The position numbers were made by a program, and so were the translations under genes. Under the pieces are notes generated by a model that did no database searches, had not been told where the DNA came from, and saw only the letters and a program-made list of their open reading frames with translations. A stretch of DNA of 64,000 bases, from assembly GCA_965248915.1 (NCBI GenBank), contig OZ252216.1, positions 153,091 through 217,090 on the forward strand. Reading direction: 5' to 3'. This DNA comes from Alphaproteobacteria bacterium. Lineage in GTDB: Bacteria > Pseudomonadota > Alphaproteobacteria > M2410. Every line of letters starts with the position of its first letter. The first letter of the stretch is position 1. This document shows positions 3,307 to 53,713 of the stretch, in pieces.

Positions 3307-4983
3307 ATGAAAATCGCACTTTGTTATCCATCACTTTTGCCGGGTGAACGGCCGAGTTACGGTTTGCCGCCAATGGGTATTCTTTATATTGCGGCAGAGC
3401 TGCAATTGGCGGGGCACACAGTAACCGTTGTGGACTCTGATATCGAAGGATTGACTGCGCAAGAAACGGCGGAGTGCATTTTGGCCTCTGACCCGGATCT
3501 TATCGGGTTCAGCATTATGACGCCTCAGGTTCCCTGTTGTTTGCAAGCCTGTCATATTTTGAAGCGTGAACGCCCCGATATTCCCATCGTCATTGGCGGC
3601 GCCCATATCGCATCGACCCTGGATGACATCTTCACTCAAAGTGATGACTTCGATTTCGTGATCAATGGCGAGGGCGAGGTTACGATGCTCGAAGTTTGCG
3701 CCAAGATGCGTGAACAGAAAGTTCCAGAGTGTCTAGTGGGCGTCCCTGGCGTCATGTACCGCAAACCAGATGGTAAGGCCAAGATCAACCAACCACGACC
3801 CTTCTTTAAGGATCTCGATGAGTTGGCACCAATTGATTATTCATTGGTGGATGTTTTCAAATACAAAATCCCGACCCTACCTGGGCCGCCAGTTGTTGGC
3901 TTGATGATCACGCGCGGGTGTCCGTTCAAGTGTACATACTGTGATGCACCGACGACAACCGGTCGCAAAATCAGATATCATTCGCCGAAACGCGCGGTCG
4001 AAGACATTGTGCGGCTTAACAAACAATTCGGCGTGCGAGGATTTTCTTTCCGCGACAGTACCTTTACGGCGTCAAAGAAATGGACCAAGGAATTCTGCGA
4101 ACGTCTTATTGATAGCGGTGTCAAAATCGCTTGGCGTTGCAACACGCGCGTCGACTGTGTCACCGAAGAACTTCTGATGCTCATGAAGAAGTCAGGCTGT
4201 CACACCATCAATTTCGGTGTGGAATCCGGACACCCAGACATTCTGGCGCGCATCAAGAAAGAAGTGAAGATTGACCGGATTTACGACGCTCATAAATGGA
4301 CGCGAAAAGCCGGAATCAGAACTTACACGACATTTTTGGTCGGTTCACCCGGTGAGACCGATGAAACAATACGTGAGACAATAGAGGTAGCAAAGCGAGC
4401 CAGGCCGAGCATGGCCATGTTCTTTGTGACCATTGGATATCCAGGAACCGAAATGTACCGCGAAGCCGTTCAAGAGGGCCTCATCGAACAAGGATGGTGG
4501 AACAAGCAACGCTGGGACAAAGATGTGAACAGCGCATTCGAAAAACGGTGGGGCTGGTCGGCCGATGCAGGGTCGTTACATCTTGAAGGCTTCGATTCAC
4601 AAGGCTGGCAGCGTCGCGCCACACGCGAGTTTTACCTTCGTCCCAGATTTGTACTAGACACATTGATCTTCACTTTGAAGAACCCGTATTTCCTAAGGCA
4701 CGTTATTGTCCTATCGAAAGAAGTCCTGCCTCTGCACAAATTGCGTCTTCCTTGGAAGAAGTCCAAAATCAATGAAGATCATAAAGTCTATTCCCGTTGT
4801 CCGGAAGCTGCGACATGGGATTACAAAGAACGTGATGACCTCCCAGCTCTCACCATTACATCAAGTGGTGCTGTGAAGCGGACCGAAGAGGACATCAAAA
4901 TCCCGAAGGACATTCCTCCCGTCACCTTGGCCGACAGTGGTTTGGTGGAGCTGCGTGCAGGCAAGACGCAAGCAGCGGAATAG
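3307..4983 (+). CDS. B12-binding-domain radical SAM protein (paralog A)
   Basis: N-terminal cobalamin-binding Rossmann segment (KIALCYP…GILYIAAEL…VTVVD). Radical-SAM Cx3Cx2C (GCPFKCTYCDAP). About 120-aa C-terminal extension with WWNKQRWD…RWGW and RCPxxxxWDYKxRD motifs. Confidence 0.85.
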   Translation: MKIALCYPSLLPGERPSYGLPPMGILYIAAELQLAGHTVTVVDSDIEGLTAQETAECILASDPDLIGFSIMTPQVPCCLQACHILKRERPDIPIVIGGAHIASTLDDIFTQSDDFDFVINGEGEVTMLEVCAKMREQKVPECLVGVPGVMYRKPDGKAKINQPRPFFKDLDELAPIDYSLVDVFKYKIPTLPGPPVVGLMITRGCPFKCTYCDAPTTTGRKIRYHSPKRAVEDIVRLNKQFGVRGFSFRDSTFTASKKWTKEFCERLIDSGVKIAWRCNTRVDCVTEELLMLMKKSGCHTINFGVESGHPDILARIKKEVKIDRIYDAHKWTRKAGIRTYTTFLVGSPGETDETIRETIEVAKRARPSMAMFFVTIGYPGTEMYREAVQEGLIEQGWWNKQRWDKDVNSAFEKRWGWSADAGSLHLEGFDSQGWQRRATREFYLRPRFVLDTLIFTLKNPYFLRHVIVLSKEVLPLHKLRLPWKKSKINEDHKVYSRCPEAATWDYKERDDLPALTITSSGAVKRTEEDIKIPKDIPPVTLADSGLVELRAGKTQAAE

Positions 4984-5067: not shown

Positions 5068-6669
5068 TTACTCGCTCACCGTCAGATGTGAATTCGCGTC
5101 ACTGCGCTTCTTATAATCCCAGTTGGGCTGCGACGGACAACGCTCAAGTATTTGCAGGCGTTCATCTTCCTTGATCTTCTTTTGCGGTAAGAGATTGCGC
5201 AATTTGTAGAAGGGAAGAACTTCAAATCCAAGATTCCACAAATGCCTCATGAAATAAGGGTTCTTCAACGTGAAAATTCCCGTGTCCCAAATAAAGCGTG
5301 GACGCATGTACCAGGCTCGGGTTGCCTTGCGTTGCCACAACTCCGCGTCAAATCCGTTCTTGAAGGTAAGGGCGCCTGCATCTGTCCAGCCCCAACGGAC
5401 TTGGAAGGCAGAGTTCTTTGAGGCGTCAAATTCTTGTTTGGCCCACCACCTGGGTTGAACCTCGCCGGCCACGAGTGCCTCATCATACATCGGCGTTCCC
5501 GGATAGGCCGTTGAAACGAAGAACATGCAGAGGCTTGGCCGAACGCGTTTGGAGAAATCGAGTGTATTTTGAGCGCTTTCTTCTGTTTCCCCAGGATTGC
5601 CAATAAGGAATGTCGCGTATGTCCGGATGCCCAATTTGCGGCAGCGCTCAAAGGCATCAACGACCTCTTCGAGATCAACTTCTTTCTTGATGCGCTTCAA
5701 GACTTCCTGGTCACCGGATTCAACGCCAAAGTTGATGACGTAGCAACCGGCCTCGGCCATGAGGTCAAGAAGACCAGGTGGGACGAGATTTGCACGGGTG
5801 TTGCAGCGCCATTTGATATTGAGATTTTCGTCGACCAACCGTTGGCAGAACTCCTGCGCCCACTTCTTCTTTGCGGTGAAAGTTGAGTCCTTAAACACGA
5901 AATTGGTGACACCGTACTTCTCTTTGTAGAACTTGATGTCTTCAATCACTCGGTCAATGGACCAAAATCTGAGCTTGGTTCCCATAGTGATCGGTGCGTC
6001 ACAGAATGTACATTTGAATGGACAACCGCGGGACAACATCATTGAAACCACATAACCACCCGCCATGGTCGGAATGCTGTACTTCTTAATATCGACCATG
6101 TCGTAGTCGACCGACGGAAACTCATCGAGATTGCGGGTAAACGGACGACCGAGGTTGACCTGGACTTTGCCAGTCTCTTTGTCGCGGTAAATTATGTTGG
6201 GCACATCTTCGATGCACTCTTGGAAATTGGTGTAGCCTTCTTCGGTCTTTACGCCCTTGTCGCGCAAGTTTTGGCAGGCCTCAAGCAGCGTGTACTCGCC
6301 TTCACCGTGAACGGCAAAATCGAAACAGTCAGCCATTTCGTATGTGTCACCCTTAGTGGAGTCGACATGAGCGCCTCCAAGTACGACGGGAAGGTCAGGA
6401 CGGGCTTCTTTAATCAGTGTCGAACATGCCAGCGCTGTAATCAGCTGCGGCGTCATCATGCTAAAGCCGATGAGGTCCGGTTCGCTTTCTAAGACGCGCA
6501 CGACCGTTTCTTCCACAGAAAGACCGTCGATGTCCGCGTCGATCACTTCGACGTCGAAACCATTCTCCTTCAACAAGGCCGCAATGTACAAGACGCCCAA
6601 GGGTTGCAGCCCGTACTTTGCTTTGTGTCCCGGTACCAATGCCGGATAACAGAGAGTGATCTTCTTCAT
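5068..6669 (-). CDS. B12-binding-domain radical SAM protein (paralog B)
   Basis: Same architecture as 3307..4983 (KITLCYPALVP…GVLYIAALL…VEVID; GCPFKCTFCDAP; C-terminal RWWAKQEF…RWGW and RCPSQPNWDYKKRSD). Clearly homologous but diverged, roughly 55-60% identity by eye. Confidence 0.85.
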   Translation of the reverse strand: MKKITLCYPALVPGHKAKYGLQPLGVLYIAALLKENGFDVEVIDADIDGLSVEETVVRVLESEPDLIGFSMMTPQLITALACSTLIKEARPDLPVVLGGAHVDSTKGDTYEMADCFDFAVHGEGEYTLLEACQNLRDKGVKTEEGYTNFQECIEDVPNIIYRDKETGKVQVNLGRPFTRNLDEFPSVDYDMVDIKKYSIPTMAGGYVVSMMLSRGCPFKCTFCDAPITMGTKLRFWSIDRVIEDIKFYKEKYGVTNFVFKDSTFTAKKKWAQEFCQRLVDENLNIKWRCNTRANLVPPGLLDLMAEAGCYVINFGVESGDQEVLKRIKKEVDLEEVVDAFERCRKLGIRTYATFLIGNPGETEESAQNTLDFSKRVRPSLCMFFVSTAYPGTPMYDEALVAGEVQPRWWAKQEFDASKNSAFQVRWGWTDAGALTFKNGFDAELWQRKATRAWYMRPRFIWDTGIFTLKNPYFMRHLWNLGFEVLPFYKLRNLLPQKKIKEDERLQILERCPSQPNWDYKKRSDANSHLTVSE

Positions 6670-10052: not shown

Positions 10053-10615
10053 CTAGGTGACGCAGGCTTCAATAGAAGAACCGATAGGTTCGCCAAACCT
10101 ATTTGGACATAGAATGGGGGCTTTACACAATGGGATTAGCTCGTTCTGAAGAAAATCAACAAAGGTCTCAGCTTCTCCTGCGGTTGGGAAAACAAGATCA
10201 ACGCCTGAGTTTTGGGTCGGTGTATAGTCTCGATCACGGTCTACGTTCTCGATACCGACAACAATCACTTGTGGAATCCTAATGCCGGCAACTTCGTCAT
10301 ATGAATAGAATCGTGCGTGCGAGCTTGCAAGATGGAATAGCCATTCGCCATCCAATACGTAGAGCACAGGATATTTCTTATCCCTCCGGCTGTACCCTTC
10401 TGGCAACTGAACATAGATGCGGCGAGTTTCGTCGAGTACGGTGGAATAGAAGTCCACTGTCTCACCTGGATTGGGCATTCCTTGAATGACAGACACATTA
10501 TTGTGAGCGTTCTGAGACATTTGGTCAGCTTGTTCGACTGCCGCTCCGCCCGAGCAGCCTGTAAGAAAGATCGCCAAAAAAGTTGTGTCAGAGTTCCACG
10601 TTTAGAATTTCCCAT
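10053..10615 (-). pseudogene. decayed lipoprotein esterase (putative esterase / enterochelin-esterase family) remnant
   Basis: The frame 10053..10577 encodes the lipobox LTGC plus esterase-family core (YVLDGEW…DRDYTP…FLQNELIPL) but stops before the GxSxG nucleophile. The ATG at 10613-10615 opens a different frame (MGNSKRGTLTQLF…). One extra A in the A6 run (10576-10581) would fuse it into a canonical signal peptide MGNSKRGTLTQLFLAIFLTGC. Only about 55 nt separate the stop from the MFS start. Confidence 0.45.
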
Positions 10616-10871: not shown

Positions 10872-11843
10872 ATGAAAACCAAAATTACCGAACTCTTTGG
10901 CATCGAGCATCCGATCGTGCAAGGCGGTATGCACTATGTTGGCTTTGCGGAACTGGCGGCAGCCGTCTCAAATGCGGGCGGTCTTGGCATAATTACTGGA
11001 CTGACCCAACCGACGCCGGAAGATCTCGCCAAAGAGATCGCCAGATGTCACGAAATGACCGACAAACCATTTGGTGTCAATTTGACTTTCCTGCCTGGCT
11101 TCACCGCTCCACCATATCCTGAATACATCGAAGCGATCATCAATGGCGGCGTGAAGATTGTCGAAACGGCCGGGCGCAATCCGCAAGCATATATGCCGGC
11201 CATGAAAGAAGCAGGCATCAAGGTCATTCACAAATGCACATCCGTCCGCCATTCCATTAAGGCGGAGAGCATTGGCTGTGACGCCGTGAGTGTCGACGGC
11301 TTCGAGTGCGGCGGACACCCGGGCGAAGATGACATTCCAAATATGATTCTGCTTCCGCGCGCAGCGGAGGAACTAAAGATTCCTTTCGTTGCCTCTGGCG
11401 GCATTGGCAACGCTCAGCAGTTGGTGGCGGCACTCGCTTTGGGCGCCGATGGCATTAATATGGGCACCCGTTTCATCGCGACGCAAGAAGCGCCGGTCCA
11501 CCAAAACGTCAAAGACGCGTTGGTCGCCGCCAGTGAGTTAGATACGCGATTGATCATGCGCCCCTTGCGCAATACAGAGCGTGTCCTTTCCAACCCTGCA
11601 GTCGAGAAGATTGTCGAGATTGAGAAAGAGAAAGGCGCTGGCCTTGAAATCGGCGACATCATGGAACTTGTCGGTGGTGTTTATCCGAGGGTCATGCAAG
11701 AAGGCGAAATGGACATAGGCGCCTGGAGCTGTGGCATGGTGGCTGGGCTTATCCATGATATCCCGACCGTCAAAGAACTCGTGGATCGGTTCATGAGTGA
11801 GGCTGAGGAGCTCATTCGCGGGCGACTCCAAGCGGTTCTCTAG
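10872..11843 (+). CDS. nitronate monooxygenase / 2-nitropropane dioxygenase family (FabK-like FMN enzyme)
   Basis: MKTKITELFGIEHPIVQGGMHYV…GGLGIIT. TIM-barrel FMN family. The track ORF starts at 10800, but an AGGAAA SD precedes the ATG at 10872. Confidence 0.85.
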   Translation: MKTKITELFGIEHPIVQGGMHYVGFAELAAAVSNAGGLGIITGLTQPTPEDLAKEIARCHEMTDKPFGVNLTFLPGFTAPPYPEYIEAIINGGVKIVETAGRNPQAYMPAMKEAGIKVIHKCTSVRHSIKAESIGCDAVSVDGFECGGHPGEDDIPNMILLPRAAEELKIPFVASGGIGNAQQLVAALALGADGINMGTRFIATQEAPVHQNVKDALVAASELDTRLIMRPLRNTERVLSNPAVEKIVEIEKEKGAGLEIGDIMELVGGVYPRVMQEGEMDIGAWSCGMVAGLIHDIPTVKELVDRFMSEAEELIRGRLQAVL

Positions 11844-12733
11844 TCGACTGAAGGGGTGTCTTCTTCCGCGATGTGTCGGGCCACAAGTTCAGGGTCTTGC
11901 ATAGGAATGTAGTGGGTCAGATGCGGGAGATAGACGTCCCGTCCATTTGGGAATAGATCTGCGAGCTTTTCCCAAGTCGGAGAAATGGAGAAGTCCAGTG
12001 CGTCATCGTGGCCAGGCTCAATCCCTTTCGCGCGCAAGATGGTAACCGGCAAGTCGATCTCTTTCACAAGGTGATGGATATTGGCGTCGACGCTTCCAAT
12101 ATAGACCGATGATTCGATTACGGGCGGACACGCAAGTTCGAACCCGTCTTCCGTGTCACTTGGGAGGAGACCGTGTCTGCAATAGTCCCGCAAGACTTGC
12201 TTGTTCCAGTTCGAATGGGGTTGTCGACGCTGAAAGCGCTCATACATGGCTTCCCAAGACTCAAATCGCCCGCGTCGTCGTGACACCGGATGATCTTCGG
12301 GACCAGAAAGGTCTGCGTATCTGCCTGAAGTATAGGCCTCTGGACGCATGATTACCGGGTCGATCAATAGGAGGCGCTGATAGAGATGGGGCAGACGGTG
12401 CGTAACCTGGGTTGTGCAATGACCACCCATGGAGTGACCGACACCAATGATGTTCTCAAGACCAAGGTGTTGAACCAGTTCAAAGACGTCTTGGGCGACC
12501 AGGCGCCAATCGCTCAAGGGGCCGGTTTTTTCGCTGCGGCCGTGCCCCCGGAGATCGACGGAATAAACATGAAATCCTTCTGGCAGGGCGGCCACCGTCT
12601 GATCCCAAACACGGGCGTGAAAGCCGGTCGCGTGGGTCAGAAAGACAGGTGTGCCGCCGGGCTCTCCCCATTCGAAATAGGTGATCTGTGCGCCTGAGGC
12701 TTGGAATCGATGCTGTTTAGGAGTGGCGTCCAC
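11840..12733 (-). CDS. alpha/beta-fold hydrolase
   Basis: GVGHSMGGH nucleophile elbow. N-terminal …ITYFEWGEPGGTPVFLTHATGFHARVW… is typical of the abhydrolase_1/6 family. Convergent with the NMO gene, with a 4-nt overlap. Confidence 0.8.
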   Translation of the reverse strand: MDATPKQHRFQASGAQITYFEWGEPGGTPVFLTHATGFHARVWDQTVAALPEGFHVYSVDLRGHGRSEKTGPLSDWRLVAQDVFELVQHLGLENIIGVGHSMGGHCTTQVTHRLPHLYQRLLLIDPVIMRPEAYTSGRYADLSGPEDHPVSRRRGRFESWEAMYERFQRRQPHSNWNKQVLRDYCRHGLLPSDTEDGFELACPPVIESSVYIGSVDANIHHLVKEIDLPVTILRAKGIEPGHDDALDFSISPTWEKLADLFPNGRDVYLPHLTHYIPMQDPELVARHIAEEDTPSVD

Positions 12734-12902
12734 GCTTGTGCTTTCTTGTTCTTCTTTGCTGGGAACTATAGGGGGGGCTTTGGACCGAGAATAGGGACTT
12801 TGTCACAAGCCGTCATTATCATTGGAAAGACGCGAAAGACGAGGTAAGAGGGGCGAGAAATTTCTGATCCTGCCGGCTGGCGAAAACAGAGGCGCGGCCA
12901 AT

Positions 12903-15098
12903 ATGAAAAATCGGGCGGACGTGGTTCATGAGAACTTCCTGAACCGTGTGAAATCTGAAGACTTTCCGAACCCCAGGTCATCCGTCAGCCTGGAAGACGC
13001 TGGGCTCAACACATCGCAATTGGTTGAGATGTTTGAAACCCAAGTCTTGAGTCGACACTTGGACCTACAATCGCGCAAACTCCAAGCACGCGGCGAGGGC
13101 TTTTACACAATCGGTAGTTCTGGGCACGAGGGCAATGCGGCCATTGCTGCTGCGTTTCGAATAGGCGATATGGCGTTCCTGCACTACCGTGATGCCGCCT
13201 TCCATATTCAGAGGTCAAAGAAGGTGCCGGGTCAAACTCCGATCTGGGACATGCTCTTGAGCTTTGTCGCCTCCAGTGACGATCCCATTTCCGGTGGGCG
13301 TCATAAAGTTCTGGGCAGTAAGGCGCTTTCGATCCCCCCTCAAACCAGCACCATTGCGTCCCACCTTCCAAAGGCGGTTGGGGCTGCCTACAGCATCGGC
13401 CTTTCACGCCTCATGAAACGAGAAGGGGATCTCGACCGCGACGCTGTCATCCTGTGTAGTTTTGGTGACGCGTCGGTCAATCATTCGACCGCTCAAGGCG
13501 CCATCAACACGGCCTGCTGGACATCCTTCCAAGGCGTACCGCTTCCCTTGGTTTTTGTGTGTGAAGACAATGGTATTGGCATTTCTACCAAAACCCCCTC
13601 CAACTGGGTCGAGCGAAGCTGCGGTCATAGACCGGGTCTTGCCTATTTCAAATGCGATGGCCTGAGTCTCCTCGACACCTACCGAGCCGGACAGGTCGTA
13701 GAGCAATACGTTCGCCGCCATCGTAAGCCTGTCTTTCTTCACATGGGCTGCGTGCGCCTCTTTGGACATGCCGGAGCGGACGTTCAAGAGAGTTACATGC
13801 CCAAGCAAGAGATCTTGGAAATGGAAGCAAACGATCCGCTTCTGCATTCAGCGCGCATCATCGTTGAAAACAATATCCTAACCTCTCAGGAAATTCTCGA
13901 CCTTTACAAGAGAACCGAGGACCGCGTAATCCGAACGGCGGAGGAGGTTATCAAACGTCCCAAATTGGCCACACGGGCCGACATTCGCGGCAGCTTAATC
14001 CCGCCAATGAAGGAGCCCGCCCAGGTCGCCGACAAGGTCGCATTGGCTGAGCGAGGACAGTCACCGCAGCATATGGCCCGCCTCATCAATTGGGCCCTCG
14101 CTGACATCATGGCAGAACGTCCCAATGTCGTTTTGGCCGGGGAGGATGTCGGCGCTAAGGGCGGCGTCTATGGCGTCACAGCCAAACTCTCTGAGACGTT
14201 CGGCAATCACCGTGTCATCAACACACTGCTTGACGAGCAAAGCATTCTGGGGCTCGCCATCGGTCTCGCCCACAATGGTTTTATCCCGATCCCGGAAATC
14301 CAATTCCTCGCCTATGTCCACAATGCAGAAGACCAAATCCGCGGTGAAGCATCGACCTTGAGTTTTTTCTCCAACGGTCAATACACCAACCCAATGGTTA
14401 TTCGCATTGCAGGACTTGGTTATCAAAAAGGGTTTGGCGGACACTTCCACAATGACAATTCCATCGCCGCTTTGCGTGACATTCCGGGCATTGTGATTGC
14501 CTGTCCGAGCAATGGCGCCGACGCGGTCGGCATGTTGCGTGAATGCGTGCGTCTCGCCGAAGAAGAACAACGCGTGGTGATTTTCTTGGAGCCAATTGCG
14601 CTCTACATGACGCGCGATTTGCATGAGCCTAAGGACGGTCTTTGGACATTTCCCTACAAAGCACCTTCCAAAATGGAAGGTGTAAAAGTAGGAGAGGTCA
14701 GCCTTCACGGATCAGGTGAAGACCTTTGCATCCTCACTTTCGGTAACGGTGTCTATCTCAGTCGCCAGGCTGAAAAAGTCTTGCAAGAGGATTACAAGGT
14801 CAACACGCGCATTGTCGATCTGCGCTGGCTTGCGCCTCTGAATCAAAAGTCGATCATGAAGGCGATTGGTCCTTGCAAGAAAGTTCTGATTGTTGATGAG
14901 TGTCGTGCCACCGGATCTCAAAGTGAGGCTCTGGTCACGTTGCTTCATGAGCATGGGGCAGGTGATCTTGCAATCGGCCGCATCACCGCAGACGATACGT
15001 TCATTCCGTTGGGCCGTGCTGCCACGGTGCCTCTCCCAAACAAAGAAGAGATCGTTGAAGCAGCGATGAACCTGGTAAACGGGGGAGAAGCGTCATGA
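12903..15098 (+). CDS. thiamine-diphosphate-dependent 2-oxoacid dehydrogenase E1 component, fused alpha/beta subunits
   Basis: N-half resembles E1-alpha (TPP-binding GDAS…NH region, GSSGHEGNAA). C-half resembles E1-beta / transketolase-like Pyr and C-terminal domains. 731 aa counted from the ATG at 12903; the track ORF starts upstream at 12822. Confidence 0.8.
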   Translation: MKNRADVVHENFLNRVKSEDFPNPRSSVSLEDAGLNTSQLVEMFETQVLSRHLDLQSRKLQARGEGFYTIGSSGHEGNAAIAAAFRIGDMAFLHYRDAAFHIQRSKKVPGQTPIWDMLLSFVASSDDPISGGRHKVLGSKALSIPPQTSTIASHLPKAVGAAYSIGLSRLMKREGDLDRDAVILCSFGDASVNHSTAQGAINTACWTSFQGVPLPLVFVCEDNGIGISTKTPSNWVERSCGHRPGLAYFKCDGLSLLDTYRAGQVVEQYVRRHRKPVFLHMGCVRLFGHAGADVQESYMPKQEILEMEANDPLLHSARIIVENNILTSQEILDLYKRTEDRVIRTAEEVIKRPKLATRADIRGSLIPPMKEPAQVADKVALAERGQSPQHMARLINWALADIMAERPNVVLAGEDVGAKGGVYGVTAKLSETFGNHRVINTLLDEQSILGLAIGLAHNGFIPIPEIQFLAYVHNAEDQIRGEASTLSFFSNGQYTNPMVIRIAGLGYQKGFGGHFHNDNSIAALRDIPGIVIACPSNGADAVGMLRECVRLAEEEQRVVIFLEPIALYMTRDLHEPKDGLWTFPYKAPSKMEGVKVGEVSLHGSGEDLCILTFGNGVYLSRQAEKVLQEDYKVNTRIVDLRWLAPLNQKSIMKAIGPCKKVLIVDECRATGSQSEALVTLLHEHGAGDLAIGRITADDTFIPLGRAATVPLPNKEEIVEAAMNLVNGGEAS

Positions 15099-16138
15099 CA
15101 GATAAGCAAACAGCACTCGTGGTCTGTCCCGGACGGGGTACCTACAACAAACCTGAACTGGGTTACTTCACCAGACATCACCCAGACAAGACGGATCTCC
15201 TCAAGAGATTTGATACCTTTCGCACTAGCAAAGGACAAGTTGAGATTAGTGAACTGGACCGCCGCGAACGGTTTTCCATGAAAGACTTCTCACGCGGCGA
15301 CAACGCATCCGCGTTGATTTACGCCTGTGCCTACGCCGACTTTCTCTCCATCGACCGCGAGAAATTCGATATCATCGCGGTGACCGGCAACTCCATGGGG
15401 TGGTACATCGCCACCGCTTGTGGCGGTGCGGTGAGCGAGGCCGGGGGTCTCGAGGTTATCAACACCATGGGCACATTGATGCATGACCATCTCGAAGGCG
15501 GACAAGCAATCTATCCGCTGATGGATGAAGAGTGGCATACAATTCCGGGGCGCCGTGAGGAGTTGTTGGGCCTCATCGACGACATTCATCACGAGCAGAA
15601 TAACAGGCTCTATGTTTCCATCGACCTTGGCGGCATGTTGGTCTTTGGCGGCGAAGACAAAGCGCTGGATCTATTGATGGAAAAACTGCCGGAAGAGCAG
15701 GGACGCTTTCCGCTTCGTTTGAACAATCACGCGGCGTTTCACACGCCTATTTTGCAAGACAATTCTGAGCGCGGCAAGGCACTGCTGTCGCAGGATCTGT
15801 TCCACCGCCCGTCCCTTCCCCTCATAGATGGACGCGGACACATATGGACCCCTTACTCTTCTGACCCAATTGAGATGTGGGACTACACACTCGGCGCTCA
15901 AATTGTCTCAACCTATGACTTCACGCGCGCCGTAGCGGTCGGCACGCAAGAGTTCTCGCCAGACTGCATTATCATCTTAGGTCCCGGCACCACACTGGGG
16001 GGCGCCGTGGCTCAATCCCTCATTTCGATTGATTGGCAGGGCCTGTCGTCAAAGGACGATTTTGTGAAAAGACAAAAATCAGACCCGATCATTTATTCCA
16101 TGGGAATGGACGATCAACGTGCAGAAGTTACAACATAG
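15095..16138 (+). CDS. acyltransferase-domain protein of the malonyl-CoA:ACP transacylase (FabD-like) superfamily
   Basis: GNSMG nucleophile elbow (GHSLG in FabD) and a downstream AAFHTP motif matching the FabD AFHS His. Its ATG overlaps the E1 stop (ATGA), indicating translational coupling. Confidence 0.55.
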   Translation: MTDKQTALVVCPGRGTYNKPELGYFTRHHPDKTDLLKRFDTFRTSKGQVEISELDRRERFSMKDFSRGDNASALIYACAYADFLSIDREKFDIIAVTGNSMGWYIATACGGAVSEAGGLEVINTMGTLMHDHLEGGQAIYPLMDEEWHTIPGRREELLGLIDDIHHEQNNRLYVSIDLGGMLVFGGEDKALDLLMEKLPEEQGRFPLRLNNHAAFHTPILQDNSERGKALLSQDLFHRPSLPLIDGRGHIWTPYSSDPIEMWDYTLGAQIVSTYDFTRAVAVGTQEFSPDCIIILGPGTTLGGAVAQSLISIDWQGLSSKDDFVKRQKSDPIIYSMGMDDQRAEVTT

Positions 16139-16154
16139 AACTGAGGAGTGACCG

Positions 16155-16871
16155 ATGACGGAAGAACGGACCGGAATTCGACAAGGCTTTACACACCTGA
16201 TGGAGCGCCAACCCGTGCGACTGGGCCTCCTCATCCTCATTCCTTTGTTGATCGCGTTGACCTTCGCCACGCCCTATTCCAATTTTGCCATCCTTGGTGG
16301 CTTTGCATTCATCATCATAGTGTCTTTGCTGCGGGTGAAGGGGTTTCAACATCTAGGATTTCGGTCGCCAGGAAAATGGGGTGCCCTCATTCTTGCCGCC
16401 ATAGGCCTCGCGGTAATACTCGAAATTGGCGCCGATGTTCTAATTGAGCCCTTCGTGGCCAAGTGGACCGGCGAAGAAGCCGATTTCTCGGCCTTCGATG
16501 GCCTCGTTGGGAATGTGCCCAACACGCTCATCATGATCGCCATTGGCTGGATCATCGGCGGCTTTTTGGAGGAGATGTTCTTTCGCGGATTCTTGCTTCA
16601 GGAGACCGGCCTGCTGCTCGGTGGGCGCAATGTCGGCTTCGCAATCGGACTAGTCCTGTCGTCAGCCTTGTTTGGCATGTCCCACTTTTATCAGGGACCA
16701 ACAGGTATGATCATGACCGGCTTGATGGGCTTCTTCTTAGGCCTGATCTACCTTGCTAAAGGGCGAAATATTTGGCTCGCGGTGCTCGTGCACGGCATCG
16801 TCGACACGATCGGCTTCACACTCATCTACTTCGACAAGTACGAAGCCCTCCGCGAAATCGTGCCGGCTTAG
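16155..16871 (+). CDS. CPBP-family intramembrane glutamic endopeptidase (CAAX protease / Abi family)
   Basis: Multi-TM protein with the family motifs EEMFFRGFL (EExxxR), …FGMSHFY… and HGIVDT. GAGGAG SD 6 nt upstream of the ATG. Confidence 0.75.
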   Translation: MTEERTGIRQGFTHLMERQPVRLGLLILIPLLIALTFATPYSNFAILGGFAFIIIVSLLRVKGFQHLGFRSPGKWGALILAAIGLAVILEIGADVLIEPFVAKWTGEEADFSAFDGLVGNVPNTLIMIAIGWIIGGFLEEMFFRGFLLQETGLLLGGRNVGFAIGLVLSSALFGMSHFYQGPTGMIMTGLMGFFLGLIYLAKGRNIWLAVLVHGIVDTIGFTLIYFDKYEALREIVPA

Positions 16872-16878
16872 GACCGAA

Positions 16879-17643
16879 CTACTTGCCTTTCCAGTCAGGT
16901 GCCCGCTTTTCCGCAAAGGCGACGGACCCCTCTATGGCATCCTCGCTGGCAAAGATCGGTCCGGTGATCTTGTTTTGATTTTTGTAGAGATCTTCTGTTG
17001 CCCAGTCTTGGCTTTCCACCATCACCTGTTTGCTGGCTGCGACTGCCATAGGCCCGTTCGCGCAAATCATTTGAGCGAGCTTTTTCGCCTCTTTAAGAGC
17101 CGTACCCTTAGGGACGACTCTGTTGATCAAGCCCATCTCGTAGGCCCGTTGTGAGGTGATGAATTCACCGGTGAGCGCAAGTTCCATAGCAAGACGTGGT
17201 GGGATTTGACGAGGGAGTTTGACAAGACCCCCTGCTGCTGCTGCGAGCCCGCGCTTCACTTCTGGAATACCGAACATGGCATTGTCCGCCGCCACGATGA
17301 GATCGCAGCTGATGGCAAGCTCAAAACCGCCAGCCAATGCGTAACCCTCAACCGCCCCGATCAAAGGCTTTTGGGGCGGCGCTTCTGTGACGCCTGCAAA
17401 TCCACGACCCTCAACCGAAGGGAACTCGCCTTTGACAAAGGCCTTGAGATCCATACCGGAACAAAATGTGCCATCCGCCCCGGTGATAATCGCGACCCGC
17501 AAATCATCATTGCCATCGAGCTCATCCATGGCGGCTGCGATGGCCACAGCCACCGCACGATTGGCAGCATTCTTGGCCTTTGGCCGGTTGATGGTTACGG
17601 TCATGATGCCGCCTTCAGTGCTGACGAGGACTTCTTCGCTCAT
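16879..17643 (-). CDS. enoyl-CoA hydratase/isomerase family protein
   Basis: MTVTINRPKAKNA…FCSGMDLKAF and the AGGFELA crotonase signature. Confidence 0.85.
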   Translation of the reverse strand: MSEEVLVSTEGGIMTVTINRPKAKNAANRAVAVAIAAAMDELDGNDDLRVAIITGADGTFCSGMDLKAFVKGEFPSVEGRGFAGVTEAPPQKPLIGAVEGYALAGGFELAISCDLIVAADNAMFGIPEVKRGLAAAAGGLVKLPRQIPPRLAMELALTGEFITSQRAYEMGLINRVVPKGTALKEAKKLAQMICANGPMAVAASKQVMVESQDWATEDLYKNQNKITGPIFASEDAIEGSVAFAEKRAPDWKGK

Positions 17644-17755: not shown

Positions 17756-18988
17756 ATGAGCGAAGCATGGATCATTGATGCCTGCCGGACACCGCGGGGA
17801 ATTGGCAAGATCGGCAAAGGCGCACTCGCCGAAATGCACGCGCAACACTTAGGCGCAACGGTCTTGAAAGCTTTGAAAGAGCGCAACGATCTCAACACCG
17901 CCGAAGTCGACGACATAATATGGGGAACCAGCTCTCAGCGTGGCGACCAAGCCGGTGATCTCGGTCGCATGGCCGCCCTTGATGCAGGTTACGACGTTCA
18001 ATCTTCCGGTGTGACCCTTGATCGCTTTTGTGGATCTGGCATCACAACCGTCAACTTTGCAGCCGCCAGTGTCATGTCGGGATTTGAAGACCTGGTCATT
18101 GCCGGTGGAACGGAAATGATGTCACACTATGGTCAAATGCAAGGCTCATCACCTTTCCTTGACAATGGAAACACCCGTCTTCGTCATGAACATCCGCAAC
18201 CTCACCAAGGCGTCTGCGCTGATGCCATCGCGACCTTGGAAGGAATTTCACGGGACGCCGTTGATGACTTGGCTTTGGTGAGCCAACAGCGCGCTGACAA
18301 TGCCATCAAGAACGGTCACTTCGAAAAATCATTGGTGCCGGTCTACAAGGAAGACGGATCTCTCGCTCTCGACCGCGAAGAATTTCCCCGCCCACAAACC
18401 ACCAAAGAAGGCTTGGCCGGACTAAACGCCTCCTTTGCGGCGATTGCTGATTTCGAACTTGACGAAGACGGCACCACCTTCCGCAAACTGGTGCTGCAGA
18501 AATACCCAGACCTGGAAATCGACCATGTCCACCACGCCGGTAATTCCTCCGGTGTTGTTGATGGCGCTGCAGCTCTTCTTTTGGCCTCGCCAAAATACGC
18601 TGAGAGCCATGGCATGAAGCCGCGCGCCCGCGTTGTCGCGATGGCCAATATGGGCGACAGCCCAACCTTGATGCTCAACGCGCCGGTTCCAGCCGCCAAG
18701 AAAGTCTTGGCGAAAGCGGGCATGAAGGTTGAGGACATCGATCTCTTTGAGATCAACGAAGCCTTCTCGGTGGTGGCCGAAAAGTTCATCCGCGATCTGG
18801 ATCTCGACCGCAGCCGCGTCAACGTGAACGGCGGCGCCATGGCGCTTGGTCACCCGATCGGCGCCACAGGGTCAATCCTCATTGGCACCATGGTCGATGA
18901 GCTCGAACGCCAAGACAAACAGTTTGGTCTTGTGACCATGTGCGCCGCCGGCGGCATGGCCCCGGCTATCATTGTTGAGAGGATGTAA
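17756..18988 (+). CDS. acetyl-CoA C-acyltransferase (thiolase)
   Basis: MSEAWIIDACRTPRG… thiolase N-terminus. Active-site regions …CGSGIT… and C-terminal …GGAMALGHPIGATG…MCAAGGMA. AAGAGGAAA SD before the ATG at 17756; the track ORF is over-extended. Confidence 0.9.
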   Translation: MSEAWIIDACRTPRGIGKIGKGALAEMHAQHLGATVLKALKERNDLNTAEVDDIIWGTSSQRGDQAGDLGRMAALDAGYDVQSSGVTLDRFCGSGITTVNFAAASVMSGFEDLVIAGGTEMMSHYGQMQGSSPFLDNGNTRLRHEHPQPHQGVCADAIATLEGISRDAVDDLALVSQQRADNAIKNGHFEKSLVPVYKEDGSLALDREEFPRPQTTKEGLAGLNASFAAIADFELDEDGTTFRKLVLQKYPDLEIDHVHHAGNSSGVVDGAAALLLASPKYAESHGMKPRARVVAMANMGDSPTLMLNAPVPAAKKVLAKAGMKVEDIDLFEINEAFSVVAEKFIRDLDLDRSRVNVNGGAMALGHPIGATGSILIGTMVDELERQDKQFGLVTMCAAGGMAPAIIVERM

Positions 18989-21576: not shown

Positions 21577-23199
21577 CTAAGCGGTTGGGTGTGACCCATT
21601 GGCGCGAGATGGTGCTTTGCGCGTGCTGCTTGTCTTGCGTTTCGTTTTAGCTTTCGCCTTCGTTTTTGCCTTAGCTTTAGCCTTCGATTTAGCTTTTGGC
21701 TTTGCTTTGGTTTTCGGTCTTGCAGATTTTTTGGCCACAGGTTTCTTCAGCGGTTTTTCCTCTTCGCCCTGGCCCAATCCATGAAGGAAGAGGGTTCTCA
21801 CATCCGCAATGTGTTTCTCGAGATTCTTCACATCCCAATCCTTAGTCGAAATGGGTGGTAGAACTTTGACTTCAATCGTTGTCGGTCGGGCGATGGCCGA
21901 TCCTTTGGGCATGGCATCCGTTGTATTCATCAAAAGGACCGGAACGATGGGCGCGTCTGCCTGCATCGACAAATGAAACCCGCCTTTCTTAAACGGTCCT
22001 AGCTTGTTGGTGACACTCCGGGTTCCTTCCGGCGCCATCATGACCGAAATGCCTGACTTCAACCCATCAATGGCTGGTTTGATAGCCTCGATGGCTTTTT
22101 CTGTATTGGAACGGTCAACAAAGAAAGTTCCAAGGGCGCGCGCCACCTGGCCGATTACAGGTTGTTTGCTGATCTCGATCTTTCCAATAGGGGCAAAGTC
22201 ACGCTTCAAGAGCTTGATCATGACAATCGCGTCAACAGCGCTTTGATGATTGAACATGAAGATTGCGGGTCGATGGGACCACAGGTGTTCTTCACCTTCC
22301 GTATTGATTCTAAGGCCTGTCGAGGCTGCCGACAATTCGCCCCAAACGGAATTGAAGATGTTACGTGCTTGCCAGGGGGAGCGGTTAAGCGCATAGGCCG
22401 ACAACGCTGCCGAGGCCGCAACCATGGAAGAACCATAAGCGAGCCCCGTACGCACGACATCCATTGTTGAAGGTGTGCCGCGGCTATCAAATCTGGTGAT
22501 GGGCCAGTCCCGTTCCTCTGCGATGCGCGTGAGCTTGCGTCCCGGATTAAGAGGGCGGGGATACTTCACCGCGTCTAGGAGTGGCAAATCCTCTGAACCG
22601 TCGGAATAGAAGTAGCTCTTAAGGAGGTCGGCGCCTTTTTCATCGCACAAAGCTTGAGCGGCCACGAGTTTTCCTTCGCCGTAACAGGCAGGTTCGATAA
22701 TGCGGCCAGTACAAACGCCGTTCTCAACTTCTAAATGATTGCAGAGAACGTTGTCGATGCCAAAGTCTTCGGCAACAGGGTCGACCTGATACGACGTCGC
22801 CGAAGAGACGATGGCAACAGTGTGCCCTTTGCGGAAGTGTGCCTCGATCAACCCGCGTGCTTCAGGATAAATCCGTGCGGCGACGCGTTCATCAAAGACT
22901 TTGCGTCCAAATTCGCAATTGGTTTCATCAAGCTGACCGCGCAAGGATGAGATCGTCGCGTTGACCCACTCGGTGAAGTCAATTTTGCCGCGCGCGAACT
23001 CCGTTGAAACGGCGACCCCGTCAATCAGCTCCGGGATCGACATATCACCTTCTTTGAGGCGCTCAACGAACAAGTCTTGAGCTGAAAACCCTGCCAGGAC
23101 GGTCTTGTCCATGTCGAAAAAGGCACCGACGGTCGAGCCTGAGGGGCCATCTTCGATGTCCCGCAACAATGTTTGATAGGTCGCCATAATTCTTCCCAA
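21577..23199 (-). CDS. bifunctional HAD-IB family phosphatase / 1-acyl-sn-glycerol-3-phosphate acyltransferase (PlsC-like) with Lys/Ala-rich basic C-terminal tail
   Basis: N-half has HAD motif I FFDMDKTV and motif IV …YSDGSEDLPLL. C-half has the LPLAT H(x4)D motif (NHQSAVD) and EGTRS motif. The last about 50 aa are KAKxK repeats. The start lies 4 nt after the plsB stop. Confidence 0.75.
   Translation of the reverse strand: MGRIMATYQTLLRDIEDGPSGSTVGAFFDMDKTVLAGFSAQDLFVERLKEGDMSIPELIDGVAVSTEFARGKIDFTEWVNATISSLRGQLDETNCEFGRKVFDERVAARIYPEARGLIEAHFRKGHTVAIVSSATSYQVDPVAEDFGIDNVLCNHLEVENGVCTGRIIEPACYGEGKLVAAQALCDEKGADLLKSYFYSDGSEDLPLLDAVKYPRPLNPGRKLTRIAEERDWPITRFDSRGTPSTMDVVRTGLAYGSSMVAASAALSAYALNRSPWQARNIFNSVWGELSAASTGLRINTEGEEHLWSHRPAIFMFNHQSAVDAIVMIKLLKRDFAPIGKIEISKQPVIGQVARALGTFFVDRSNTEKAIEAIKPAIDGLKSGISVMMAPEGTRSVTNKLGPFKKGGFHLSMQADAPIVPVLLMNTTDAMPKGSAIARPTTIEVKVLPPISTKDWDVKNLEKHIADVRTLFLHGLGQGEEEKPLKKPVAKKSARPKTKAKPKAKSKAKAKAKTKAKAKTKRKTSSTRKAPSRANGSHPTA
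21600..21745 (-). repeat. imperfect short tandem repeats (gcyttrgcyttcg-like) encoding the Lys/Ala/Pro-rich tail
   Basis: Visible on the + strand as repeated gctttagccttcg / gcttttggctttg units. Translation on the minus strand gives KPKAKSKAKAKAKTKAKAKTKRK. Confidence 0.6.
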
Positions 23200-23202
23200 A
23201 CC

Positions 23203-25569
23203 TCAGTCTTCTTGGCGGCTTAGCACCATTGTGACGATAATGTCGAGTCGGCGGGAGATATCTCGCATATCCTGCGCCCATTGAACCCGCCGTTCGGCCA
23301 CTTCCGCGCCGCCCTCGTCAAGCCCGCGATTGGTGGCGAGTTTTAAGCCCGTTTCATAAAGGCTTTTGGAAACTGATTCTTCCGAGAAAATCCGACTTTG
23401 CAAATACATCTGCTTTCCAAGTTTGATGCAGTCAGCCAAAAAGGACTTGGCGTCTTCAACCGGCTCAGATCCGAGGCGACAAAGAGCTTGAGCCACAACC
23501 GAATAGGCATCCGTGAAAGAACGAAGAACTCCCTGGGCCACAAGGGGTCTTGTTTCATCAAGCGCATCGCGCGCTGCATGACCGCCCTCTCTGAGAGCCG
23601 CTTCCCAACTCTTCGTGCGCGCTTTGAGTTCAGAATCAACTTCCGCCCGAAACTCGTCTTTTGGCGGGAAGTAAAACTCAAACTTCAACAAATCTCTCAA
23701 CGCTTCCACTTCACGCCAGAACACCAGCGCGCCGTCTTCACTAGGACGATCCGAGACCTTCATGAGCGCCAGCTCAACAATGGCATCGACAACAAAGAAG
23801 TGAATGATGGTATTTCGGTAATACGCCGCTTTGAGATACTCACCGCGACATATTGCGTAGACCTTCTCAAGTCCCTCTTCGTAACAGGTTACCACCCCAT
23901 TGCGGGTCAACTGTTCAAGCGTTAGCTCAATGGCTTCGAGGGTGTCGAGCTCTAGAGGTCCGGCTGTCGGAAACTGCCGACGATTGACGACTTCCATCCA
24001 GGATTGAATGGTCCGCTGAATACCTTTGAGGGTGCGCGCTCGTGTGCTATTGGCGAGGAGGGACAGTGTTACCAATGAAGTGGCCGTTATGGGAGTGACC
24101 TCATTGATACGAACGGCGACTTGGAAAGCGAGCTTTTGTACGGCTTCGGTTTTTTGGTCTGCATTGAGGCCGTCATTGAGGCGCTCTGGGGGAACAATGT
24201 CAGGAAGACGAAGCGGTTCGCCAAAGCGCAAGAAGATGCGGCCGAGCTTTTGCTTGGAGCGGAGGAACTTTGCGATCCAAGCCATGCCCTCTGGCTTCTT
24301 GTCGAGCCCTCGCTGTTCGCGAATATAGTCATCGACTTCATTGATCTGATCATAGGCAATTGTGACCGGAACAAATGTGACGTCATAGCTCTTGTTTCTC
24401 AGGATCGATTCAACGAAGTAATTGAACATGCCATACCGTGGCGGCAGCAGTTTTCCGGTTCGAGACCGTGTTCCTTCAAATGCCCAAACAAACGAAAAGC
24501 GCTTGTCGACCATATAGTCAATGTAACGCCGGAATGTTGCCTTGTAGGTTTCATTGTCTTGGAAACTGCGCCGAATAAAGATGACACCAGCGTTCTTGCC
24601 AAGGGCGCCAAGGCCAAAGGTATTGAGATTGATGCCGCCGAAAGCCATGGGCGGCGGCAGATTGTTGTCAAACAAAGTGACCGACAAAGCGACCGTATCG
24701 AGCATTGACTTGTGAGTGACCAAAAAGACCACAGGCCTTGAGGTGAGCAAGTCGCGAACTTCTTCCAACTGCCCTTTGTCATAGTCAATTTCAGGATCGT
24801 ACGTACTCACATACATGGCGCGTTGCAGCGCAATGAAGCAATCGAGTGTGAACGGGTTTTGAGCTGCCGCCATTTCTTTGAGATACGCTTCGGCTTTCTC
24901 GCGGACCTGCGGTAAGTCAGCATCGCCCGACTGGGAAATATCAACCAGCTTCTTTTGATAGGTTTGGTCCGAGAAGACGTCACTAGTGAGAAGTTTCGGC
25001 ACCTTGTATCTCGCGCCGCGCAAGACACGTTCGGCTCGTTCCAAGACGACGGCGGCCTGACGCAAGACAAAATCGCTCAGAGTGCTGTCATCAAATTCCG
25101 CTGAACCCCAATCGTCTTCAAATTGGCGTCGCACATCGCTCAAATGGGCGCCGAGACCTGCAGCACATTTTACCCGGTCAGGATGTCTCTTGAGCAGCCA
25201 GCGCCCTCTAAATCTTCCAGGGTGTTGAACGATCCCGGCAAAGAGGTCTTGAACGAGGGGAAATCTTTTCTCCGCGCTGCTTTGCCCAAGCCACACCACG
25301 CGCACCGGTTGGAGCCAGGGGTCATGGCCATATTGCGTGGTACTTTCAATAACCGATGATAGGTCGCTTTGGGCATCCCCACCAATATTGCAAAATGAGT
25401 GATCGACATTTTCGCCGTCGGAATGGTCCGCGATCCATTTCTTGAGGATCTCGTCTTCCAGATCATTCGCCGCATCCAACAGAAAAATAACCTGAGCTTT
25501 GCCTGCCCAAGGGCCAGTGGAAGTTTCTTGATCAACGGCGGTTTCGTGCAAGATGGTCGTTTGACTCAT
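23203..25569 (-). CDS. plsB: glycerol-3-phosphate 1-O-acyltransferase
   Basis: 788 aa, the same size as E. coli PlsB (807 aa). Contains VTHKSMLDTVAL (H(x4)D) and FEGTRSRTGKLL motifs. Confidence 0.85.
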   Translation of the reverse strand: MSQTTILHETAVDQETSTGPWAGKAQVIFLLDAANDLEDEILKKWIADHSDGENVDHSFCNIGGDAQSDLSSVIESTTQYGHDPWLQPVRVVWLGQSSAEKRFPLVQDLFAGIVQHPGRFRGRWLLKRHPDRVKCAAGLGAHLSDVRRQFEDDWGSAEFDDSTLSDFVLRQAAVVLERAERVLRGARYKVPKLLTSDVFSDQTYQKKLVDISQSGDADLPQVREKAEAYLKEMAAAQNPFTLDCFIALQRAMYVSTYDPEIDYDKGQLEEVRDLLTSRPVVFLVTHKSMLDTVALSVTLFDNNLPPPMAFGGINLNTFGLGALGKNAGVIFIRRSFQDNETYKATFRRYIDYMVDKRFSFVWAFEGTRSRTGKLLPPRYGMFNYFVESILRNKSYDVTFVPVTIAYDQINEVDDYIREQRGLDKKPEGMAWIAKFLRSKQKLGRIFLRFGEPLRLPDIVPPERLNDGLNADQKTEAVQKLAFQVAVRINEVTPITATSLVTLSLLANSTRARTLKGIQRTIQSWMEVVNRRQFPTAGPLELDTLEAIELTLEQLTRNGVVTCYEEGLEKVYAICRGEYLKAAYYRNTIIHFFVVDAIVELALMKVSDRPSEDGALVFWREVEALRDLLKFEFYFPPKDEFRAEVDSELKARTKSWEAALREGGHAARDALDETRPLVAQGVLRSFTDAYSVVAQALCRLGSEPVEDAKSFLADCIKLGKQMYLQSRIFSEESVSKSLYETGLKLATNRGLDEGGAEVAERRVQWAQDMRDISRRLDIIVTMVLSRQED

Positions 25570-53039: not shown

Positions 53040-53480
53040 TTAGCCTGTGGCGCGGCGACGATCCCGACGGCTTTGTGCCGGTTGGTAAGCTAGGCGCGCG
53101 TGAGCGCTGCAATACGGTGACCCCGCCGTTGTATTGTTTCCACAAAAATGAAATTCATTTGAACCCGGATCGCCAATAGGCCAACGACACATCGACGAAC
53201 TCAATGTCATGACGGTTGCAAACTCACCATTTTCAAGTGTGGCCTCCTCGATGATTTCAGGTTCGCTCACCACGGGTTTTGGCTGCGGCTTTGGGATAGT
53301 CGCGCGTCTTGGCCGATCAACCCGGCTGGTTGTGGCGCGTCCAGACAGTCCCAAACGGTGAACTTTGCCAATCACAGCATTTCGGGTTACATCGCCCATT
53401 GTGCGGGCAATTTGGCTGGCGCTGAGGCCCTCGGCCCAGAGCTTTTTCAGTTGTTCGACCCGATCTTCGGTCCAAGCCAT
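53040..53480 (-). CDS. gcrA: cell-cycle transcriptional regulator GcrA
   Basis: MAWTEDRVEQLKKLWAEGLSASQIARTMG…NAVIGKVHRLGL is the diagnostic GcrA N-terminal DNA-binding domain. ATG at 53480. Confidence 0.85.
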   Translation of the reverse strand: MAWTEDRVEQLKKLWAEGLSASQIARTMGDVTRNAVIGKVHRLGLSGRATTSRVDRPRRATIPKPQPKPVVSEPEIIEEATLENGEFATVMTLSSSMCRWPIGDPGSNEFHFCGNNTTAGSPYCSAHARLAYQPAQSRRDRRRATG

Positions 53481-53557
53481 ATTCGTCTCCGTAATGCGGC
53501 CCCGAAAGGGGCGAATTTGGTTCGTGGGGGCTCGAGAGCAAATGCACGCTTTCAGAG

Positions 53558-53566
53558 TTATCCACA
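53558..53566 (+). promoter_or_regulatory. perfect DnaA box TTATCCACA about 78 nt upstream of the gcrA start
   Basis: Exact 9-mer consensus read from the sequence. A 7/9 copy (TTATCCAAG) follows at about 53608-53616. Confidence 0.45.
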
Positions 53567-53713
53567 AGATGTCGTGGGTGTGATCGCATTTTATACAAGA
53601 TAGTCCATTATCCAAGCTCAAATTGACCGGATTCTGGAAAGTCGGGCGCCTTGCGAGACTTATTCACATGGAGTATTCCTGATGCCTCCAAGCGATCTGC
53701 GGATCAGCTGACT

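Follow-up and report, generated by a model that had tools for sequence, protein, structure and literature searches.

How does a 2-oxoacid dehydrogenase hand on its acyl group when the gene overlapping its own encodes neither a lipoyl-bearing E2 nor an E3, but a protein with the fold of the acyltransferase FabD? The question is raised by a stretch of 64,000 nucleotides from an alphaproteobacterium (GenBank assembly GCA_965248915.1, contig OZ252216.1, positions 153,091 to 217,090 of the forward strand), the whole of which is called the window here. On its forward strand, positions 12903..15098 encode a thiamine pyrophosphate (TPP)-dependent 2-oxoacid dehydrogenase E1 of 731 amino acids (aa), in which the alpha and beta subunits are fused. 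Positions 15095..16138 of the same strand encode a 347-aa protein that profile, structural model and residues alike place among FabD-fold Ser-His acyltransferases, in a distinct family; ATL is our label for this FabD-fold protein encoded 3' of E1. The stop codon of the first gene and the start codon of the second overlap as ATGA (15095..15098, + strand, read directly in the DNA), with a Shine-Dalgarno-like GGGGGAGAA just 5' of the ATL start, an arrangement of translational coupling. We propose, with moderate confidence, that the two proteins would be the specific components of a system converting 2-oxoadipate to glutaryl-coenzyme A (glutaryl-CoA) in the catabolism of lysine and 2-aminoadipate; a near relative of 2-oxoadipate among the 2-oxo-dicarboxylates is also conceivable as the substrate. 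An original prediction made from the letters of the window had pointed to the ATGA overlap and to the motifs GNSMG and AFHTP of the second protein, both plainly seen in the sequence, and had read the pair as a device for loading acyl units in biosynthesis, a proposal that fares less well, as discussed below.

The first partner is the easier to describe. Pfam finds in it the three domains E1_dh (PF00676, E = 7.6e-23), Transket_pyr (PF02779, 4.4e-24) and Transketolase_C (PF02780, 3.9e-14), and because all three are present the protein is a true fusion of alpha and beta chains, as first predicted, and these are of the heterotetramer type. An alternative TTG start at 12822 would lengthen it to 758 aa, and its homologues span 729-765 aa. 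Compared at full length with solved structures, it matches E1beta chains at E = 4e-41 and E1alpha chains at E = 7e-20, while staying below all NCBIfam cut-offs for pyruvate dehydrogenase (PDH) and branched-chain 2-oxoacid dehydrogenase (BCKDH), the top score being 137 bits against the 321 of NF006667. Conservation was followed in 68 distinct paired homologues, 47-69% identical. The TPP-binding motif, of the type GD(G/A)...NN and reading GDA...EDNG, is invariant in all 68, and so are alpha-His289, beta-Glu445 and beta-His516. The first of these stands in FGHAGAD, aligned with IGHHSTSD of human BCKDH and with YGPHSSAD, and the last in FHND, aligned with LHSD of the Geobacillus enzyme. In E1s the alpha- and beta-histidines function in the reductive acylation of lipoamide. 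With its canonical active site complete, the protein looks like a fully competent, conventional enzyme. It has the three domains, the TPP motif and the catalytic alpha-His, beta-His and beta-Glu of the heterotetrameric PDH and BCKDH E1s (G. stearothermophilus 1w85, T. thermophilus 1um9, human BCKDH 1dtw); it is unlike them in carrying alpha and beta in one chain of 731 aa and in being followed by a FabD-fold gene, without a lipoyl-E2 or E3 gene. Pfam detects no flavin, Fe-S or other redox domain in E1 or ATL, and none recurs in the neighbouring genes. Several E1 homologues (P0147, P0212, P0219 and P0234) are labelled 'MFS transporter' in their source annotation.

The second partner has no Pfam match at 1e-3, and its kinship emerged by other means. 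A profile built from 39 diverse members of its family matches solved FabDs at 4e-19, and its AlphaFold (AF2) model (pLDDT, the predicted local distance difference test, 95.3; pTM, the predicted template modelling score, 0.93) leads Foldseek to structures of FabD and of acyltransferase (AT) domains at TM 0.66-0.74 and 13-20% identity, with PksD among the matches. GNSMG occupies residues 98-102 and AFHTP residues 214-218, and both the nucleophile Ser100 of the former and His216 of the latter are invariant across the family alignment. With its Ser-His dyad intact ATL is predicted to be catalytic, and the thought that it might prove a non-catalytic homologue of FabD, which the original prediction had kept in mind, does not apply. 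The same alignment puts Met125 (in TMG) where FabD has Arg117, the residue that binds the malonyl carboxylate, and a near-invariant Arg14 (in PGRGSY) where FabD has Gln11; the solved A. baumannii FabD 5ypv, when aligned with ATL, bears out the change from Arg to Met. Because methionine stands at the Arg117 position, ATL should not be a malonyl transacylase. With E. coli FabD and MdcH it has in common the fold, the positions of the Ser-His dyad, the PG-G N-terminal loop and the AFH before the histidine; it differs from them in its low identity, in Met125 and Arg14, in GNSMG for GHSLG, in some 40 additional residues, conserved in the family, at the C-terminus, and in the absence of fab, mdc or acyl carrier protein (ACP) genes from its surroundings. 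Two identifications were considered and rejected. ATL is not FabD, given the replacement of Arg117 and Gln11, a score of 29.6 bits against a cut-off of 260.9 (TIGR00128) and the lack of fab or ACP neighbours; nor is it MdcH, given 40.6 bits against 297.9 (TIGR03131) and mdc genes in no locus. The family is discrete and has conserved motifs of its own (PGRGSY, GGQ137, W147, IDGRG and YTLGxQ); it counts 136 clusters at E <= 1e-30 and 659 at E <= 1e-3 when clustered at 50% identity, and thousands of matching clusters at 90%. In public records its homologues go by the name 'ACP S-malonyltransferase', despite the missing Arg117 and scores far under the FabD cut-off.

Is the overlap of the two genes an accident of this genome? 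Related loci were gathered from several sources (n = 95: 2 genomic, 80 metagenomic, 3 annotated plasmid or chromid records and 10 obtained via exact-protein look-ups), and their genes were labelled by tblastn, greedy calling of open reading frames (ORFs) in GC-rich loci having lost ATL or E1 to antisense shadow ORFs. Wherever at least 400 nt of upstream sequence is available, a fused E1 lies immediately upstream of ATL, with a single exception (82/83 loci). In that one locus, L066, a contig of 2.5 kb, the place upstream of ATL is taken by a TetR-like gene (139-537). In most annotated loci the stop and start codons overlap; the overlap of 4 nt is found again in L003, L006, L007, L008, L092, L094, L095 and L096, and one of 1 nt in L089. 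Distant ATLs that are 29% (L089/L090) and 36% (L092/L093) identical to that of the window also come with a fused E1, in very different surroundings. The association was also tested in reverse: an E1 of Roseiterribacter gracilis, chosen regardless of ATL, proved to be followed by a 54%-identical ATL overlapping its stop codon, with the glutaryl-CoA dehydrogenase gene gcdH upstream of E1 and a LysR gene after ATL. One protein of 595 aa (P0372) appears to combine an E1beta C-terminal domain, a linker and a complete ATL. It is a possible Rosetta-stone fusion; to judge by its tail, rich in proline and serine, the gene may be eukaryote-like or mis-called. E1 and ATL form an ancient, obligately coupled unit, found in thousands of Alpha- and Gammaproteobacteria, and their pairing goes far beyond chance. 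Coincidental coupling, named at the outset as what might undo the case, is countered by the near-universal adjacency, which includes members 29-36% identical.

Three of the most distant loci deserve a description of their own. In L089 (3599-9167) and L090 (7539-13107) the order is an EamA transporter, a 40-aa ORF, E1, ATL, a 298-aa protein without a Pfam match and an EryCIII-like glycosyltransferase, and in this lineage the module may serve another pathway. L091 (393-5464), a contig with 392 nt upstream, holds the most distant ATL-like protein (27% identical, SNSIG replacing GNSMG); its gene is followed by an 80-aa ORF without a Pfam match, which might be a carrier protein, and by an asparagine-synthase-like (AsnB-like) gene.

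Elsewhere the context of the pair is catabolic, not biosynthetic. In most proteobacterial loci E1-ATL lies next to, or in the midst of, gcdH, amaB, a lysDH-like gene, an aminotransferase gene and a LysR gene, usually in an operon for the breakdown of lysine. The acyl-CoA dehydrogenase (ACAD) encoded upstream of it is a glutaryl-CoA dehydrogenase, matching the solved bacterial and human GCDHs at E = 1.4e-184. Its gene, gcdH, lies within 1.6 kb of E1 in 35 of the 49 loci with enough sequence (30 of them same-strand) and is present in 43/93 loci overall, while a LysR-type regulator is near the pair in 22/42. Ten loci have downstream an aldehyde dehydrogenase that is the L-piperidine-6-carboxylate dehydrogenase AmaB (824 bits against a cut-off of 730), and seven have a lysine-dehydrogenase-like gene, whose product belongs to the saccharopine-dehydrogenase family and is nearest to PH1688 (3abi), an L-lysine dehydrogenase. 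A class-I/II pyridoxal phosphate-dependent aminotransferase is encoded directly upstream of gcdH in 8 loci. The chromid of Ruegeria sp. THAF33 has a compact arrangement, a divergent LysR gene preceding aminotransferase-gcdH-E1-ATL, with junctions that overlap or measure 12 nt. In R. pomeroyi, lysDH (SPO0234) adjoins AASADH (SPO0235), and both were reannotated on experimental evidence, according to a paper that cites Neshich et al. 2013 for it (PMC4334477). A glutarate CoA-transferase is in none of the annotated loci, and no ACP, ketosynthase (KS) or bio gene lies near the pair in the proteobacterial loci examined. Unbiased clustering of neighbours, made on all-frame ORFs and yielding many shadow-ORF clusters, of which only those with protein-like lengths were interpreted, brought out no additional recurrent partner. 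In one gammaproteobacterial clade an ArgR-like gene, identified by eye, always stands some 100-500 nt 3' of ATL in the block formed by a divergent LysR gene and gcdH-E1-ATL (L041, L045, L047, L049, L054, L061, L071, L073, L076 and L084); as a partner it was rejected, being mere synteny within that clade.

The window copy belongs with these loci. Its E1 is 60-70% and its ATL 57-64% identical to the gcdH-linked copies, and in a neighbour-joining tree the ATL nests among them (with L009, L005 and L013). Identity and tree position point to an orthologue of the gcdH-linked copies, here separated from gcdH, amaB and lysDH.

What, then, would the pair do? The operons encode an aminotransferase together with E1-ATL and no other source of glutaryl-CoA, and a role in the step from 2-oxoadipate to glutaryl-CoA is therefore proposed. 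E1 would decarboxylate 2-oxoadipate on TPP and reductively glutarylate a lipoyl arm, borrowed from the E2 of another complex or carried by a dedicated lipoyl protein. ATL would accept the glutaryl group on its nucleophile (as glutaryl-O-Ser100) and hand it to CoA, standing in for the catalytic domain of an E2, while a shared E3 would reoxidise the lipoyl arm. Glutaryl-CoA would then go on to GcdH, crotonase and thiolase. By way of context only, the window has a crotonase and a thiolase, the steps that follow GcdH, and this crotonase could act on crotonyl-CoA downstream of GcdH.

Such a reaction, placed in lysine catabolism upstream of GCDH, would be that of human 2-oxoadipate dehydrogenase (DHTKD1-DLST-DLD). 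The proteins are not alike: DHTKD1 is a homodimeric E1o-type enzyme that needs no FabD-like partner, whereas the E1 considered here is of the heterotetramer type, in the order alpha then beta. What is similar is the economy, DHTKD1 (E1a) being presented in a preprint as a specific E1 that borrows shared components, the E2o DLST and the E3 DLD (bioRxiv 10.1101/2020.01.20.912931). A second comparison is with the Pseudomonas gcdR-gcdHG module, gcdG coming after gcdH in the very place of the E1-ATL pair. In both cases a LysR gene is divergent from gcdH, which is followed by the gene or genes supplying glutaryl-CoA; the replacement of GcdG by E1-ATL implies a 2-oxoacid precursor, not glutarate. GcdR is a LysR-family regulator (PMC6667623), and GcdG a CoA-transferase (PMC7645780). 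A third system would be a precedent for an alpha/beta-type E1 that works with an acyltransferase of serine-hydrolase fold. In the acetoin dehydrogenase AcoABC(L), the E2 AcoC would unite a lipoyl domain and an alpha/beta-hydrolase-fold domain in one chain, and the NCBIfam model NF011457 carries a name of that kind. ATL is unlike AcoC in having no lipoyl domain and in adopting the FabD fold rather than the classical alpha/beta-hydrolase fold.

The lipoyl carrier is the delicate point. Within the window, Pfam scans of about 50/52 ORFs of at least 100 aa reveal no E2, E3, lipoyl, ACP or KS protein, and tblastn with lipoyl domains and AcpP as queries gives no significant match, which bears out the early remark that the window is devoid of lipoyl-E2 and E3. 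Among the related loci one has a candidate. In L004, from a Marinobacter metagenome-assembled genome, a 477-aa protein encoded right after E1-ATL (11264-12697) comprises two lipoyl domains, a subunit-binding domain and an E2 core that is short of two segments and reads SFDTRQLS for the SYDHRVIDG of canonical E2s, with threonine in the place of the catalytic histidine. A scaffold whose transferase role had moved to ATL would look like this. Because the histidines related to lipoamide are kept in 68/68 E1s, and because this lipoyl protein adjoins the pair, a lipoyl carrier acting in trans is favoured, and both carrier and E3 are presumably supplied in that way.

To be sure, a number of facts weigh against the assignment to 2-oxoadipate. 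A hidden Markov model search for lipoyl and E2 domains over every ORF from -9 to +6 kb is negative in 92 of 93 loci, and the protein of L004 that makes the exception is a singleton with no close relatives, which does not lend itself to generalisation. The gcdH gene is missing from 14 of the 49 loci with enough upstream sequence. In the window itself neither gcdH nor amaB nor lysDH is near the pair, and the sole ACADs encoded there, at 49.6-52.0 kb, share 27-31% identity with GCDH. Distant members lie outside lysine contexts, some next to a glycosyltransferase and others next to YjbQ and SodC, and the substrate may differ between clades. The canonical human E2o handles glutaryl groups, which leaves the need for an ATL unexplained. 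A. tumefaciens cannot do without the glutarate CoA-transferase CaiB for its supply of glutaryl-CoA even though 2-oxoadipate feeds biotin synthesis (Hu and Cronan, PMC7645780), which hints that in some alphaproteobacteria 2-oxoadipate can pass via free glutarate. Finally, while gene association and residue conservation are observed, it is from them that we infer the substrate, the product and the ATL step, and likewise the lipoyl carrier.

These difficulties invite other explanations. The one that survives best, even if we see it as rather unlikely, is that E1 works with housekeeping E2 and E3, as human DHTKD1 does, ATL being an accessory: a glutaryl-CoA:ACP transacylase for pimeloyl-ACP and biotin, a proofreading acyl-hydrolase clearing mis-acylated carriers, or a hydrolase releasing glutarate. 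Enzymes of the FabD fold usually exchange dicarboxylic acyl groups between CoA and ACP, there are also hydrolases among them, and PksD figures in the fold matches; moreover, glutaryl-CoA is the primer of BioZ in alphaproteobacteria, and the need for CaiB in A. tumefaciens implies a route through free glutarate (PMC7645780). Yet an accessory role leaves unexplained the adjacency in 82/83 loci, the translational coupling and the survival of the pair in loci other than lysine operons; neither an ACP nor a bio gene nor a CoA-transferase is found with it, and a hydrolase releasing glutarate would deprive the adjacent GcdH of its substrate.

A little less probable again is a mechanism that dispenses with lipoate, in which Ser100 of ATL would take the acyl group directly from E1, as acyl-TPP or an equivalent, and pass it to CoA, some other oxidant taking the two electrons. 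The general want of lipoyl, E2 and E3 genes in cis, extending to the very different contexts of the pair, would be accounted for at once, and strict coupling together with the apparent E1beta-ATL fusion of P0372 suggests direct contact between the partners. The chemistry is less accommodating: the hydroxyalkyl-TPP enamine needs a two-electron oxidation before it can acylate a serine, and there is no redox domain in the pair or recurrent nearby. E1 has also retained the residues by which canonical E1s reductively acylate lipoamide, and L004 does have a lipoyl protein next to the pair.

It is also conceivable, but improbable, that the substrate in this genome is another 2-oxoacid, for example a branched- or medium-chain one, tied to the acyl-CoA and lipid genes nearby and not to lysine. 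The window copy is indeed away from gcdH, amaB and lysDH, and its neighbours include an alpha/beta-hydrolase, a nitronate monooxygenase (NMO)/FabK-like protein, a crotonase, a thiolase, a wax ester synthase/diacylglycerol acyltransferase (WS/DGAT) and a glycerol-3-phosphate acyltransferase (GPAT). Its close identity to the gcdH-linked copies, in E1 as in ATL, and the nesting of its ATL within them tell otherwise, and a crotonase and a thiolase are also what follows GcdH. As for the original idea that the pair loads a starter or extender unit of a polyketide or fatty acid synthase (PKS/FAS), delivering an acyl or hydroxyalkyl unit to an ACP, it has a precedent in the TPP-dependent E1-like enzyme and the E2-like protein that load a glycolyl unit on an ACP in quinocarcin and naphthyridinomycin biosynthesis, and some appeal for distant members near a glycosyltransferase (L089/L090) or near an 80-aa ORF and an AsnB-like gene (L091). 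But the window and the proteobacterial loci are devoid of ACP, KS and any other PKS/FAS gene, the recurrent neighbours are catabolic and the window copy groups with gcdH-linked orthologues; the idea is very improbable and was not supported.

The immediate surroundings of the pair call for some rectification. Just downstream comes a gene for a CPBP (Rce1-like) intramembrane protease (16155..16871, + strand; PF02517 9e-20, 71.2 bits against a cut-off of 22.4), whose translation displays EEMFFR, FGMSH and HGIVD, of the types EExxxR, FxxxH and HxxxD. It had rightly been noticed, at a distance given as 17 nt; the gap is 16 nt, with a GAGGAG ribosome-binding site ahead of the gene, which is possibly co-transcribed with E1-ATL in this genome. 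None of the 51 related loci with enough downstream sequence has a CPBP gene beside the pair; the protease was rejected as a component of the system and is an incidental neighbour in this genome. Beyond it lie a crotonase/enoyl-CoA hydratase gene (16879..17643, - strand; PF00378 3e-55; NF006100 392.9 bits against a cut-off of 282) and an acetyl-CoA C-acetyltransferase (thiolase) gene (17756..18988, + strand; NF004682 778 bits against 568). Both exist as announced, but they do not flank the block, being downstream of it; the upstream neighbour, divergent and 5' of E1, encodes an alpha/beta-hydrolase (11840..12733, - strand; Pfam Abhydrolase_6 and Abhydrolase_1) that has a tblastn match in none of the related loci. 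A scan for promoters and terminators returned no promoter-like site, and terminator-like sites only at the level expected by chance.

Other genes of the window have their own points of interest. Two of them, convergent, encode B12-binding radical-SAM proteins (3307-4983, + strand, 558 aa, and 5068-6669, - strand, 533 aa), next to another (1926-2960, + strand) whose product has a lysyl-phosphatidylglycerol-synthase transmembrane domain, and the three may form a lipid-modification cluster. A HAD-hydrolase is fused to a PlsC-type acyltransferase (21577-23199, - strand) with a long, histone-like C-terminal tail rich in lysine and alanine (…KPKAKSKAKAKAKTKAKAKTKRK…), in a gene adjoining those of the PlsB-like GPAT (23203-25569) and of the WS/DGAT wax-ester synthase (25627-27063). 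A 174-aa ORF (10053-10577, - strand) matches only positions 1-108 of a 'Putative esterase' profile of 251 positions and is probably a truncated gene or pseudogene. The Pfam scan of window ORFs also located a GcrA gene (53040-53621), by which the DNA can be recognised as alphaproteobacterial.

No description of the E1-ATL pair was found in the searchable literature, and in the papers searched (PMC5653290, PMC7645780 and PMC4334477) no bacterial gene is assigned to the step from 2-oxoadipate to glutaryl-CoA. The pair is a specific candidate for this step of bacterial lysine catabolism. More broadly, and quite tentatively, it may represent an unrecognised architecture of 2-oxoacid oxidation, where the E2 core would be replaced by a free-standing FabD-fold acyltransferase docking on E1. 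Such a module would use the lipoyl arm of a protein acting in trans or, in the boldest version, do without lipoate altogether; Proteobacteria would have put it to work on the conversion of 2-oxoadipate to glutaryl-CoA, and other phyla on other 2-oxoacids. If the proposal is true, this would be an unusual 2-oxoacid dehydrogenase enzymology, with an E1 obligately coupled to a FabD-fold Ser-His acyltransferase and not to an E2 core. Correcting the misleading annotation of ATL and E1 would, for its part, improve the reconstruction of lysine, glutarate and biotin-precursor metabolism.

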